32,591 nucleotides of DNA, from contig JBHLQH010000036.1 in NCBI GenBank assembly GCA_048884965.1, forward strand, positions 1 through 32,591, read 5' to 3'. Position numbers and translations under genes: made by a program. Below are positions 11,411-14,562 of this stretch, piece by piece (the first letter of the stretch is position 1; each line of letters begins with the position of its first letter). The notes under the pieces were generated by a model, which did not search any database, was not told the origin of the DNA, and worked only from the letters and a program-made list of their open reading frames with translations. The stretch comes from Candidatus Thorarchaeota archaeon (GTDB taxonomy: Archaea; Asgardarchaeota; Thorarchaeia; Thorarchaeales; Thorarchaeaceae).

Positions 11411-11872
11411 CTAAACCCTCTTGACGAATATAGATGCCCCATCTGAAGGATAGAAGTCTGTAATGGTTGCAGTTTCCACGAACCCTAGTTTCTGATAGAA
11501 TTGTCTTGCCACCATATTGCCTTCTTCCATGAACAGAAATATCCTTCTGAGCGCATAGTCCTTAGATGCAAACTTGTTCTTGGCATCAGACAGGACTTGA
11601 TTCACCAACCTAGTGGCGATCCCCCTTCTTTGATATTCGGCATTCACTCCCAATCCGATAATCTCAATGATTCCATCATTCAATCCCCCTCGAATCGCCC
11701 ATGATACTGTTCCGCACAGAATGTCATCATCGAAACAGAGGATAGTTTCCATTTGTGATAGTAGATCATGTGCAAAGGCCTCAGCCCGTTCACTATGAGG
11801 CTCAACTTCAGTCATGTACATATTCTTCAGTACAGCAAAATCAGTTTTGATGGCCTTTCGAAGTAGAATCAT
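11411..11872 (-). CDS. GNAT-family N-acetyltransferase (RimI-like)
   Basis: IIGLGVNAEYQRRGIATRLV (acetyl-CoA motif A) and NMVARQFYQKLGF (motif B). Start placed at ATG 11872 (MILLRKA), which begins the GNAT fold; the ORF-track start is 11926. Confidence 0.88.
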   Translation of the reverse strand: MILLRKAIKTDFAVLKNMYMTEVEPHSERAEAFAHDLLSQMETILCFDDDILCGTVSWAIRGGLNDGIIEIIGLGVNAEYQRRGIATRLVNQVLSDAKNKFASKDYALRRIFLFMEEGNMVARQFYQKLGFVETATITDFYPSDGASIFVKRV

Positions 11873-11934
11873 GAATACTTTCTGTAGAAGTGATACATAT
11901 TCATGTTTTGGCTTCTGCATTGCCAAATAGGAAT

Positions 11935-11985: not shown

Positions 11986-12765
11986 CTATTCGATGATGAG
12001 GACTGCATCAACAAAGAGCTCGTAGTCTTCGTCCTCGTCAAGATTTCGAATCAAGACCTTCTCTACCTCATCGTCCCCCCTTATCTCAAGGAGTTTTGAT
12101 TCGTAGAGGACCTTCACAGATGAATTTTCTAATTCCTGTTTCAATTCTTCTGTTGTAATGATTTCCTTCTCTGGAGTCAGGAGTATGACACGATCGGTCA
12201 CATCAGTTAGCTCTAAGGCCGCATCTATAGATTCATCCCCTGAATGTAGCACCAAGGTTCTCATATCTCTGAAGGGCTCTGTGTTTTCTACAGAGAGAAA
12301 TACGCCTTTATCTAGGAACTCATCCTGACCTATTAGGCAAACGGATTCGCTCGCGCGCTCCTCAGTTTCTTCCTCGACAAGCTCTCCTCGCCCTTTTCTA
12401 TAGCTCTTGATGGCTTCGTGTAAGGCATCAGCAGCAAGATTCGAGCAGTGCATCTTGATTGGCGGAAGTCCATCGAGCTCGTCGGCAACATCTTGCCTTG
12501 TGAGTTTCATGGCTTCATCTAGTGTCATCCCTACAACCATCTCAGTTGTCATACTCGTCGTAGCGATGGCTGAACCACATCCAAATGTTCTGAACCTTGC
12601 TTCAGTTATCTTGTCGTCATCTATTCTGATGAACATCTCCATAATGTCGCCACATGTAGGATTTCCAACCTTGCCGTAGGCAACATCGTCCCCTTCTAGT
12701 GTACCAACATTCCTTGGATTACGAAAGTGGTCGAGGACTTTTTCCGAATACTTTGTTGATTTCAT
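11986..12765 (-). CDS. iscU: Fe-S cluster scaffold IscU/NifU-N fused to a degenerate thioredoxin-reductase-like NAD(P)-binding domain
   Basis: YSEKVLDHFRNPRNVG, GNPTCGD (C38, D40), FGCGSAIA (C63), LPPIKMHCS (H106, C107). Residues ~143-259 resemble the TrxB NADPH domain (GQDEFLDKGV...IRGDDEVEKVLIRN...ELFVDAVLI). Confidence 0.9.
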   Translation of the reverse strand: MKSTKYSEKVLDHFRNPRNVGTLEGDDVAYGKVGNPTCGDIMEMFIRIDDDKITEARFRTFGCGSAIATTSMTTEMVVGMTLDEAMKLTRQDVADELDGLPPIKMHCSNLAADALHEAIKSYRKGRGELVEEETEERASESVCLIGQDEFLDKGVFLSVENTEPFRDMRTLVLHSGDESIDAALELTDVTDRVILLTPEKEIITTEELKQELENSSVKVLYESKLLEIRGDDEVEKVLIRNLDEDEDYELFVDAVLIIE

Positions 12766-13947
12766 TTACTTTACCCCCGTTGTTTCTGATTGTGTATAGA
12801 TTGGTGAAAGTTCACGAAGACGTGTAACTATCGGCGGTACCGCTTCAAGTACCGCATCGATGTCAGATTCCTCGTTGTATCTACCAGTAGTAATCTGTAG
12901 CGAACCATGGGCTTCCTCATGCAATAGACCTGTTGCAATGAGGGTATGGGATGGCTCGAGAGTCTTTGATGTACATGCTGAACCAGTTGAGATGGCGATG
13001 TTCTTGTCCTTGAACATTAGTAAGATTGACTCTCCTTCAATACCATCAAATCTAAAGTGCGAATTGCTGGCAAGGCGATCGATAGGATGCCCGTTTAGGT
13101 GGCTGTCAGGGATCTCAAGTATTGTATCGATTATTCTTCTCTGCCACCTCCTATATCTTGAAACTTCAGACTCCATTTCTTCATCCATTATTTGCGCAGC
13201 CTTTGCCATGCCCACAATGGATGCCATGTCTTCCGTTCCTGATCTGATACCTTTCTCCTGTCCGCCTCCCATCATGACTGGATTGACTCTAAACTTCTTC
13301 TGCATGAACAGAACACCAAGACCCTTCGGTCCGTAGATATCATTAGAGGAGAGAGACATCAAGTTGATTTTGTCCCGTTCAACGTCTATCGGAACCAGTC
13401 CCTCTGCAGCGACAGCATCTGAATGGAACGCGATTCCTTTCTCCTCTGCCAATTCTCCTATTGCCTTTACGTTCTGGATTGTACCAATCTCATTACTCGC
13501 GTAGCCAATTGATAGCAAGATGGTTTCATCCTTGATGCGTTTCTCTAACTTGGTCAGCTTCACTCGCCCATATTGGTCCACAGGGACCTTAGAAACCTCA
13601 AACCCATTCTGAGTTAGATACTTGGCAATATTATGTATCGACACATGTTCGATTTCGGATATAATCACATGATTTCCTTTTCTCTTGTTCTTCAACGCAT
13701 ATCCAACTATACCGAGGTTATTTGCCTCAGTTGCACCAGATGTGAAGATAATGTCATCAGAATCAGCATTTATGAATCTGGCAATCTTTTCTCTGCTTGC
13801 CTCCAGCGCATCGGTTGCCACATCACCTACCTTGTGGAGCGATGACGGGTTGCCGAATCTCTCGGTGAACCATGGTAGCATTTCTTCTACTACTCGAGAA
13901 TCGACTGGTTTTGCAGTGTGATAATCCAGGTAAATTTGTTTGTCCAA
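12766..13947 (-). CDS. iscS: IscS/NifS-family protein with the PLP-lysine position replaced by Asp
   Basis: IYLDY, FGNPSSLH, FTSGATEANN, SNEIGTIQ, GGGQEKGIRSGT and STGSACTS (C325) are present. SLSSNDIYGPKG replaces the canonical S-x-H-K-x-Y-G-P-K-G. Confidence 0.92.
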   Translation of the reverse strand: MDKQIYLDYHTAKPVDSRVVEEMLPWFTERFGNPSSLHKVGDVATDALEASREKIARFINADSDDIIFTSGATEANNLGIVGYALKNKRKGNHVIISEIEHVSIHNIAKYLTQNGFEVSKVPVDQYGRVKLTKLEKRIKDETILLSIGYASNEIGTIQNVKAIGELAEEKGIAFHSDAVAAEGLVPIDVERDKINLMSLSSNDIYGPKGLGVLFMQKKFRVNPVMMGGGQEKGIRSGTEDMASIVGMAKAAQIMDEEMESEVSRYRRWQRRIIDTILEIPDSHLNGHPIDRLASNSHFRFDGIEGESILLMFKDKNIAISTGSACTSKTLEPSHTLIATGLLHEEAHGSLQITTGRYNEESDIDAVLEAVPPIVTRLRELSPIYTQSETTGVK

Positions 13948-13959
13948 TCACATCCACCC

Positions 13960-14313
13960 CTAGAACCACATTGTGGTATCTGCTTCTAGGGCAAGGTCAT
14001 TCAAGGTTGCAGCGCCAACGATTTTCAAAGCGGGGTCAAGCTCCACTTTATCCCATCCTAGCATCCGTTTTGATGCCTCACAAACATATATGGGGATTCC
14101 CATGCTAATTGTCTGTTTAATGATGTCTGCTAAACTTGGGAAGTCGCCTGCTTTGATCTTTTCAGCTGCCCCCGGCTGAAGGATTCGTAGGGCTTGTCCC
14201 AAAAAGTAGACCTTTGCATCGATATCCATTGCTTTCGCGCTTTGAGCGAGCACAAATGGAGAATACTGACGCTCTGGGTCATCACTTGTCTGTACATATA
14301 ATATCGAACTCAT
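13960..14313 (-). CDS. DsrE/TusD-like sulfur-carrier protein
   Basis: 117 aa; VYFLGQAL and GIPIYVCEAS with a single Cys78 at the DsrE/TusD active position; C-terminal GAATLNDLALEADTTMWF typical of DsrE-like proteins. Confidence 0.85.
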   Translation of the reverse strand: MSSILYVQTSDDPERQYSPFVLAQSAKAMDIDAKVYFLGQALRILQPGAAEKIKAGDFPSLADIIKQTISMGIPIYVCEASKRMLGWDKVELDPALKIVGAATLNDLALEADTTMWF

Positions 14314-14319
14314 TTCTCA

Positions 14320-14562
14320 CTACTCCTTTCTTCTCAATAGGAATCTCTGTACGCCATCGTCCATCTTCTCATAGCTGATTAGGATATGTCCCGTTCTTTT
14401 TGCGAATCGTTTGATGTCTTCTTCTGCCGCTGGATCATCAGCCAGCAGCTCTAGGACCTGTCCTGGCGCTAGCTGATCGATTGCTTCTCTCGTCTGAAAG
14501 AGTGGTTGTGGACAGTATAATCCGACACAGTCTATTGTTTCGTCTGGCTCTACAGGTTTCAT
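14320..14562 (-). CDS. tusA: TusA/SirA-family sulfur carrier
   Basis: IDCVGLYCPQP (CPxP motif), GQVLELLADDPAAEEDI, and C-terminal FLLRR. Confidence 0.92.
   Translation of the reverse strand: MKPVEPDETIDCVGLYCPQPLFQTREAIDQLAPGQVLELLADDPAAEEDIKRFAKRTGHILISYEKMDDGVQRFLLRRKE

Follow-up and report, generated by a model that had tools for sequence, protein, structure and literature searches.

A pyridine-nucleotide subdomain fused to the Fe-S scaffold IscU in Thorarchaeota: likely origin and predicted docking on a lysine-less IscS

The contig JBHLQH010000036.1 of a Candidatus Thorarchaeota archaeon (assembly GCA_048884965.1) was analysed over positions 1 to 32,591, and this whole stretch of 32,591 nucleotides is called the window here. 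Its reverse strand carries a cassette for the assembly of iron-sulfur (Fe-S) clusters, the last gene of which encodes the scaffold protein IscU fused in frame to a second domain, hereafter X (fusion IscU::X). What is X, where does it come from and what could it do on a scaffold protein? The first-pass annotation, made from the letters of the window, had read X as a catalytically dead domain for reduced nicotinamide adenine dinucleotide phosphate (NADPH) derived from the thioredoxin reductase TrxB, repurposed as a docking module or as an acidic surface binding iron or the cysteine desulfurase IscS. As detailed below, X is a pyridine-nucleotide subdomain and most likely the remnant of a larger flavoprotein. 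The chances appear about even that this remnant of a CxxC-less, IscU-fused flavoprotein is now a tethered docking module on the IscS homologue encoded just upstream (the cassette IscS).

An intact IscU followed by a relic subdomain

The fusion protein comprises an intact IscU (residues 1-128), an acidic disordered linker and the X domain of 117 residues (143-259). The segment 11986-12340, which had first drawn attention, corresponds to residues 142-259 and the stop codon. The features of the gene are the following.

11986-12765, strand (-): whole gene of the IscU::X fusion, 259 residues plus stop codon (open reading frame and translation)
12382-12765, strand (-): IscU (NifU_N) scaffold domain, residues 1-128, with C38, D40, C63, H106, C107 and LPPIK at 100-104 (Pfam, alignment of homologues, Foldseek)
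12340-12381, strand (-): acidic disordered linker, residues 129-142, poorly conserved in sequence, with a predicted local distance difference test (pLDDT) score of about 30 in the AlphaFold2 model
12337-12339, strand (-): Cys143, linker cysteine where the C-terminal domain starts, invariant in 112 Thorarchaeota-type homologues
11989-12339, strand (-): X domain, residues 143-259, relic pyridine-nucleotide subdomain of a flavoprotein of the thioredoxin reductase (TrxR) type (Pfam, NCBIfam, phmmer against the PDB, Foldseek)
12229-12246, strand (-): HSGDES, residues 174-179, at the place of GxGxxA (translation); family pattern [DH]-x-G-[DE]-x-S
12169-12177, strand (-): TPE, residues 197-199, at the place of the 2'-phosphate-binding HRR (LIHRR in 2zbw aligned with LLTPE)
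12007-12045, strand (-): conserved hairpin N241-D253 (NLDEDEDYELFVD), of which Y248 and L250-D253 lie in the predicted contact with the cassette IscS (conservation)

Four methods agree that X is the pyridine-nucleotide subdomain of low-Mr flavoproteins of the TrxR type. Pfam places Pyr_redox on residues 172-240 (23.5 bits for a gathering score of 22), and the NCBIfam model TRX_reduct (TIGR01292) aligns residues 144-257 with positions 117-232 of its 300 (3.2e-13); its score of 49 bits, for a curated cut-off of 343, comes from the middle-domain positions only. Compared with the PDB by phmmer, residues 130-259 find the TrxR-like protein 2zbw of T. thermophilus as best match (1.5e-9, chain residues 130-247), followed by TrxRs, AhpF and ferredoxin-NADP+ reductases (FNRs) of the TrxR type. 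Foldseek, a check that the first-pass annotation had proposed, also retrieves 2zbw_B with the C-terminal half of the model (1.7e-12, 123 columns, root-mean-square deviation (rmsd) 2.2 Å), and a feature search of the ESM Atlas returned the same Pyr_redox assignment and nothing further. The profile positions 117-232, 2zbw and the Foldseek match thus bear out the initial statement that residues from about 143 to 259 follow the TrxB middle domain from end to end.

The IscU half is that of an Fe-S scaffold by its NifU_N domain, its ligand residues and the adjoining IscS-type gene. NifU_N (PF01592) covers residues 5-124 (1.5e-47, 161 bits for a gathering score of 22, Pfam), whereas the score of the fusion with TIGR03419, 185.7 bits, lies slightly below the equivalog cut-off of 187.9 (NCBIfam). 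C38, D40, C63, H106, C107 and L100-P101-P102-x-K104 are invariant in 56 homologues; they correspond to the E. coli set of cluster ligands (C37, D39, C63, H105, C106) with an LPPVK-type motif. Foldseek matches the N-terminal half of the AlphaFold2 model with IscU 7c8n (6e-17) and with the A. fulgidus protein 4eb5_C, to which the domain is 57% identical with an rmsd of 1.0 Å. The mean pLDDT of the monomer model is 81 and drops below 50 in residues 129-143. The reading of an intact IscU with an acidic linker is confirmed.

It should be stressed that nothing of a domain for flavin adenine dinucleotide (FAD) accompanies X, as had been noticed at first: X consists of the NADPH subdomain alone, nothing but the linker stands between it and IscU, and its boundary is also the C-terminus of the protein. 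The quoted motifs GVFLSVENTE (154-163), LHSGDES (173-179) and TPE (197-199) were also found at the places given for them, the first occupying the place of CxxC. CxxC is missing from all 46 truncated domains compared and from the 14 full-length fusions described below. Its absence is real, but these full-length relatives contradict the idea that it was lost in this lineage from a true TrxB. The motif GxGxx[GA] is kept in one of the 46 truncated domains, while all 14 full-length fusions and 51 of the 65 stand-alone relatives have it. At position 174, D occurs in 37 and H in 7 of the 46, while G176 is found in all and S179 in 43; in the same way, HRR is replaced by T-x-x, with T197 in 44 and K200 in 32 members. 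Dinucleotide binding by X appears unlikely, since the motif survives in one member out of 46 and its first Gly has become Asp in 37 and His in 7. X is probably non-catalytic, and by every enzymatic criterion it falls outside the TrxRs and FNRs.

The domain is yet strongly conserved over phyla, which, together with the decayed motif and the missing FAD domain, supports the pseudo-enzyme reading of the first-pass annotation. The mean column identity of X is 58% over bacterial and archaeal members, and Thorarchaeota and bacteria share 42-59% of its residues. Eleven residues are invariant between phyla, among them G154, R169, G176, R192, G230, E244, Y248, L250 and D253; E244 belongs to a conserved D-E-D-E loop (D243-E246). 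All members end exactly at the domain boundary. As judged from this conservation, the remnant is held under purifying selection. The strong acidity reported at first holds for this protein (net charge of X -21, isoelectric point (pI) 4.1) but not as a trait of the family, in which the charge ranges from -21 to +3 with a median of -9, compared with -3 for the NADPH domains of relatives, full-length or stand-alone.

X is shared by more than 200 proteins of the databases, nearly all of them 258-260 residues long and with NifU_N, and a relative is encoded in at least 307 species genomes (one genome per species). Loci were fetched for the best 80 of these 307, and IscU and X are in one frame in all 80. 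These best 80 include archaea (Thor-, Prometh-, Odin-, Hermod- and Hodarchaeota, Thermoplasmata) as well as numerous anaerobic bacteria (Desulfobacteraceae, Syntrophus/Smithella, Coriobacteriia, Thermoleophilia, Actinomycetes, Aminicenantes, WOR-3, Zixibacteria, Spirochaetota, Fibrobacterota, Aerophobetes). In a survey of the Asgard phylum, in which frames of about 257-300 residues with E <1e-26 were counted as truncated fusions, such fusions occur in 70 of 76 genomes of the source family, in 64 of 68 of a second large family, in 5/7, 1/1 and 1/1 genomes of three more families and in one genome of another; they were not found in the remaining families of the phylum searched with this IscU::X query. 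A chimera or misassembly of a single genome, which the first-pass annotation had named as one of two refuting possibilities, is ruled out by the database proteins, the 307 species and the prevalence in two Asgard families; the other, a domain unlike TrxB, is contradicted by the TrxR-like nature of X. Some short proteins from metagenomes, in which the match is confined to the last 57 residues (P0171, P0161, P0169 and others), look like assembly chimeras and were disregarded.

Full-length fusions and the origin of X

The best non-truncated sequence matches of X are themselves fusions with IscU. A protein of 443 residues joins IscU to a complete TrxR-like flavoprotein with GGGPAG (FAD), GGGNSA (NADPH) and HRK and without CxxC, and such full-length fusions of about 444 residues form a large family found in Methanoperedens, Methanosarcinales, ANME-2 and Jordarchaeaceae. 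Their genes stand in the same cassette, as DsrE-IscS-IscU::FNR in Methanoperedens, TusA-IscS-IscU::FNR in a complete Jordarchaeial genome and IscS-IscU::FNR-flavodoxin on one metagenome contig.

In the tree of the IscU domain, all truncated and full-length fusions fall into one starred clade (Shimodaira-Hasegawa-like approximate likelihood ratio test (SH-aLRT) 95), in which the truncated ones make up a single branch (87). This clade leaves out most stand-alone Asgard IscU paralogues, including the second IscU of the source genome, and it contains a few related IscU genes without any extension. The truncated form is also monophyletic (99), on a long stem, in the tree of the NADPH domain. When truncated and full-length forms are held together in this tree, the result is 52 log-likelihood (lnL) units better than the free quick maximum-likelihood (ML) tree, with a p-value of the approximately unbiased test (p-AU) of 0.93. 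The free quick topology, in which the two forms are not joined, was not used because the constrained search gave a better tree. Within the IscU-domain tree, the Thorarchaeal IscU::X branches among bacterial sequences, and the Promethearchaeota-type proteins form a separate starred group. This suggests that the cassette was transferred between bacteria and Asgard archaea at least once.

The full-length forms of Methanoperedens keep GxGxxA together with HRK or HRH, and the Jordarchaeial and ANME forms keep GxGxxA, with YKE or TDE in place of HRR. Across the aligned sequences the decay of motifs is thus graded from Methanoperedens through the Jordarchaeial and ANME proteins to the truncated form. 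An acidic hairpin (GEDEDFEL) is already present in the Jordarchaeial full-length form.

These comparisons point to X as, most likely, the deletion remnant of a full-length, CxxC-less flavoprotein fused to IscU. In the TrxR fold, the NADPH subdomain is an insert between the two halves of the FAD domain, and because of this arrangement the loss of both FAD segments would be the simplest history. The ancestral flavoprotein would have been fused whole to IscU within a TusA-DsrE-IscS-IscU cassette, where it presumably supplied Fe-S assembly with electrons from inside the fusion protein. In the line leading to the source gene, both halves of the FAD domain would then have been deleted and the dinucleotide motifs would have decayed, while the remnant was retained.

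Descent from a CxxC-bearing TrxB was rejected, as CxxC occurs in none of the 14 closest full-length relatives. A stand-alone TrxR-like protein of 311 residues from Thorarchaeota was also considered as partner or donor and set aside, since its gene adjoins that of a flavodiiron protein, outside any isc cassette. This CxxC-less flavoprotein (locus L014:1126-3258 of genome G020; locus L017 of genome G005) keeps GGGDTA and HRK, and its NADPH domain groups with the full-length IscU fusions in the tree. Its flavodiiron neighbour combines metallo-beta-lactamase and flavodoxin domains, and the two proteins probably form an electron chain detoxifying O2 or NO.

The cassette and the predicted docking of X

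Upstream of the fusion, the cassette contains three more genes.

12766-13947, strand (-): cassette IscS, cysteine-desulfurase homologue of 393 residues (Pfam Aminotran_5), in which N202-D203 replace the His-Lys that binds pyridoxal 5'-phosphate (PLP) and C325 is kept; predicted docking partner of X
13960-14313, strand (-): DsrE-family sulfur carrier (Pfam DsrE, 1.1e-15), in most of the 80 loci
14320-14562, strand (-): TusA-family sulfur carrier, first gene of the cassette (Pfam TusA, 5.8e-24), in nearly all of the 80 loci

TusA, DsrE and IscS genes almost always directly precede the fusion in the 80 loci, and an IscS gene is directly upstream wherever upstream DNA is present (about 73 of 80). 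In the window, the order is TusA-DsrE-IscS-IscU::X on one strand, and the ATG start codon of IscU::X directly abuts the stop codon of the cassette IscS (gap of 0 nt). SSNDIYGP is invariant in 42 cassette IscS from bacteria and archaea, in which C325 is also invariant and N202-D203 invariant or nearly so. The best PDB match of the cassette IscS is A. fulgidus IscS2 (4eb5_A, 2.7e-132), with an identical SSNDIYGPKG motif. The core of the system is therefore a lysine-less IscS/IscU pair of the A. fulgidus type (MIS-type), to which the TusA and DsrE carriers and X are added. Since the cassette IscS has no PLP lysine while C325 is invariant, sulfur probably reaches the cassette by a persulfide relay and not by cysteine desulfuration.

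Docking of X was predicted with a model of two cassette IscS chains and X, built with own unpaired alignments. The interface score ipSAE reached 0.69, 0.68 and 0.68, and the best of three controls 0.00; the mark is reached by 58 of 80 solved complexes and by 2 of 110 mismatched pairs, a calibration only roughly applicable to this three-chain design. The runs have at least 81% of contacts in common, and the pLDDT of the partner is 89. To our knowledge, no similar complex is known, which makes recall of a solved structure by the model unlikely.

The predicted contacts on X (167, 169, 191-192, 194, 218, 220, 231-233, 235-236, 248 and 250-253) cover most of the polar and aromatic residues that are invariant in the family (R169, R192, K218, E235, Y248, L250, D253). 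Those on the cassette IscS are 98, 122, 124-125, 133, 136-137, 337-340 and 342-343, where I337 is equivalent to R340 of E. coli IscS (offset of +3, set by the SACTS motif). In E. coli, an IscS with the substitution R340E binds CyaY, IscX and ThiI more weakly or not at all and TusA less well, but its binding of IscU is unimpaired (PMC2854127). E98, P122, D124, Q125, K133, I337, G340, L342 and H343 are kept in 32-42 of the 42 cassette IscS, and two IscS of the full-length type make up most exceptions at E98, Q125, K133, I337, L342 and H343. The contact residues differ in the second IscS of the source genome and in A. fulgidus IscS2, both of which work with an IscU devoid of X. This pattern is such as a real interface would give, although it is correlative. 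The docking module of the first-pass annotation thus stands, as far as IscS is concerned, as a prediction (ipSAE of 0.68 as against 0.00, the R340-equivalent site and the conserved contacts), whereas its TrxB parentage does not.

According to the model, the conserved face of X (R169, R192, K218, E235, Y248, L250-D253) would bind the cassette IscS at the surface that CyaY, IscX and ThiI use on E. coli IscS. From this predicted site it may be supposed that X would clamp the scaffold to the cassette IscS as a second grip and that it could gate the access of the carriers TusA and DsrE. The flexible linker, usually with one Cys, would bridge the assembly site of IscU and the docked X.

Some genes near the cassette or related to it can be mentioned here. 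The operon holds no gene for a chaperone, a ferredoxin or an A-type carrier. A GNAT acetyltransferase gene (11411-11926, strand (-)) follows IscU::X at a distance of 60 nt; it also occurs at the Thorarchaeota loci L098 and L099 and not in other lineages. The source genome encodes on contig C24 (L008:224-1881) a second pair, formed by an IscS of 404 residues and an IscU of 126 residues without X. This IscS is also without the PLP lysine (GHL for GHK) and departs from the cassette IscS at the residues predicted to touch X. The cassettes of Prometh-, Hod- and Odinarchaeota encode, next after IscU::X, a protein of about 790-800 residues that combines a coenzyme A (CoA)-disulfide-reductase-like flavoprotein (CoADR), TusA and rhodanese (L018:5379-7769 and the matching position in L026, L050, L060, L063, L067, L070 and L080). 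It is a candidate for an NAD(P)H-dependent persulfide reductase tied to this cassette. The source genome has no homologue of this fusion, only a plain CoADR-like gene of 453 residues located elsewhere. In some Asgard genomes, IscU is split after about position 34 of NifU_N, just before the first cluster Cys, by an intein of about 390 residues with a LAGLIDADG homing endonuclease (L138:262-1842 in genome G089, also G048, G058 and G068; Pfam Intein_splicing, LAGLIDADG_3, Hom_end).

Alternative roles, known systems and significance

Several points weigh against a remnant that now docks on the cassette IscS. The trees are unrooted and built on few columns, so that the direction from full-length to truncated form rests mainly on the fold. 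Binding rests on one structure prediction with own unpaired alignments. The AlphaFold2 monomer gives no fixed placement of the two domains (predicted template modelling score (pTM) 0.52), and for docking on the same IscS protomer the predicted site would have to be within reach of the linker of 15 residues. In the source organism X (-21) and the cassette IscS (-12) are both acidic. The conserved old nucleotide crevice (G176, S179, T197, K200) lies outside the predicted interface and is unexplained by a pure clamp, and a clamp role offers no account of the conserved linker cysteine either.

Of 79 bacterial and archaeal fusions, 68 have such a cysteine in a linker that varies elsewhere; it is absent from both full-length fusions inspected (P0151 and the Jordarchaeial protein of locus L100). 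The minimal IscS/IscU systems of archaea and bacteria, served by a TusA/DsrE persulfide relay, might at first have had a flavin reductase of their own on the scaffold. Thiol chemistry could then have replaced this electron supply in the truncated lineage, X docking on the cassette IscS in the manner of an integral frataxin/IscX-type effector and positioning the mobile linker Cys, which would accept persulfide, serve as resolving thiol or be the fourth ligand of the cluster. Such a role is rather unlikely, but it would, if true, amount to a new way to deliver and reduce sulfur on IscU in which neither cysteine desulfuration nor ferredoxin takes part. Whether or not it docks on the cassette IscS, X could also be a ligand-sensing module, its remodelled Rossmann crevice binding a nucleotide, a phosphate metabolite or a metal and coupling Fe-S assembly to the redox or energy state of the cell. 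This seems unlikely, with the following points in its favour: G176 is invariant and S179, T197 and K200 nearly so in 46 diverse members; the alignment with 2zbw puts these residues on the N-terminal end of the first helix and the last part of strand 2, where a ligand is classically bound; and their position outside the predicted interface means that the clamp leaves their conservation unexplained. However, the Asp (37 of 46) or His (7 of 46) at the first Gly of GxGxxA and the acidic residues after G176 should, from what is known of Rossmann folds, disfavour a pyrophosphate. Moreover, the ribose or 2'-phosphate position has no conserved basic or acidic residue, and G176 is lost in some metagenomic members.

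The acidity of X recalls frataxin, and carboxylates such as those of D243-E246 might bind Fe2+ and pass it on to IscU, or else modulate the cassette IscS in an iron-dependent manner. The charge of -21 and pI of 4.1 found here, the family median of -9 as against -3 in full-length and stand-alone relatives, the conserved D-E-D-E loop with its invariant E244 and the overlap of the predicted site with the CyaY/IscX footprint would all fit an iron donor or iron-dependent effector. This role is nonetheless quite improbable: acidity is not universal, as members reach +3, the fold is Rossmann-like and not that of frataxin, and basic, aromatic or hydrophobic side chains prevail among the invariant residues of the interface. 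Recruitment of another partner (TusA, DsrE, a ferredoxin or a flavodoxin) through a docking surface kept from the reductase past is still a little less probable. Nearly every cassette has TusA and most have DsrE, a flavodoxin gene follows one full-length fusion, and the NADPH domain of bacterial TrxR docks thioredoxin, in E. coli via the CxxC region. But X also occurs in cassettes that gave no DsrE match by BLAST, its positions 156-164, aligned with this CxxC region, are among the least conserved, and an acidic X would fit poorly with acidic ferredoxins or flavodoxins. That X is a functionless vestige carried along with IscU is hardly credible. Every catalytic motif is gone, and a few IscU genes of the fusion clade have no extension, but a vestige would not be expected to show 42-59% identity between Thorarchaeota and bacteria, eleven residues invariant over phyla, presence in 70/76 and 64/68 genomes of two Asgard families and an exact end at the domain boundary in all members.

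For a remnant docked on the cassette IscS, the closest solved system is A. fulgidus IscS2-IscU (4EB5, 4EB7, 4HVK; D199K variant 4R5F), which gives the best match of both the cassette IscS and the IscU domain. A. fulgidus IscS2 is also without the PLP lysine and keeps the Cys of the catalytic loop, and the two genes represent the minimal archaeal IscS/IscU core (MIS-type). In contrast, the A. fulgidus IscU is a single domain of about 138 residues without X, and IscS2 differs at seven predicted X-contact positions (E98A, D124G, Q125K, K133F, T335V, I337M, L342K). The full-length fusions, annotated as NifU/IscU or as thioredoxin reductase, share with IscU::X the IscU N-terminus, the cassette and the absence of CxxC, and their IscU domains are sisters of its own. 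Unlike X, they keep both halves of the FAD domain (GGGPAG and the GD motif) and GxGxxA (14 of 14), with HRK or HRH in Methanoperedens, and they are presumably active reductases; no publication on them was found. X aligns end to end with the NADPH subdomain of low-Mr TrxRs and TrxR-type FNRs (2ZBW, B. subtilis YumC 3LZW, B. cereus FNR 6GAS), from which it differs by the lack of the FAD domain, GxGxxA, HRR and CxxC.

CyaY/frataxin and IscX are small acidic binders of IscS acting beside IscU, and the predicted site of X includes the equivalent of R340 of the E. coli footprint (R116/R220/R340). The fold of X is unrelated to theirs (Rossmann-type), and unlike these separate proteins X is part of the IscU chain; should the model hold, X would act like a tethered binder of the CyaY/IscX type built on another fold. 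In M. acetivorans, the isc1 cluster encodes an IscS1 (MA0808) without the PLP-binding residues and an IscU1 (MA0807) of 24.2 kDa instead of 14 kDa, with four neighbours of unknown function (PMC7585200). This IscU1 is smaller than the truncated fusions (28-30 kDa); its extension is not described in that paper. MIS is, according to a 2026 review (PMC13066941), the least studied Fe-S system, and the TusA and DsrE carriers are additions beyond MIS as listed there. NCBIfam has no model for the IscU::X fusion. In line with the first-pass annotation, which did not recognise the architecture as a described one, a literature search in an incomplete library found no description of an IscU fused to a reductase remnant or of a TusA/DsrE/IscS/IscU operon with such a fusion, the sole hint being the size given for M. 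acetivorans IscU1 beside its lysine-less IscS1.

The source of sulfur and of electrons in minimal, lysine-less IscS/IscU systems is a puzzle, and the cassette gives testable candidates for both supplies, namely two persulfide carriers and a reductase, or its remnant, fused to the scaffold. X also offers a clear example of a subdomain excised from its parent enzyme and apparently re-used as a protein-binding module. Most of the Thor- and Promethearchaeota genomes that were searched encode X, which gives it a bearing on how Fe-S clusters are made in the archaea most closely related to eukaryotes.

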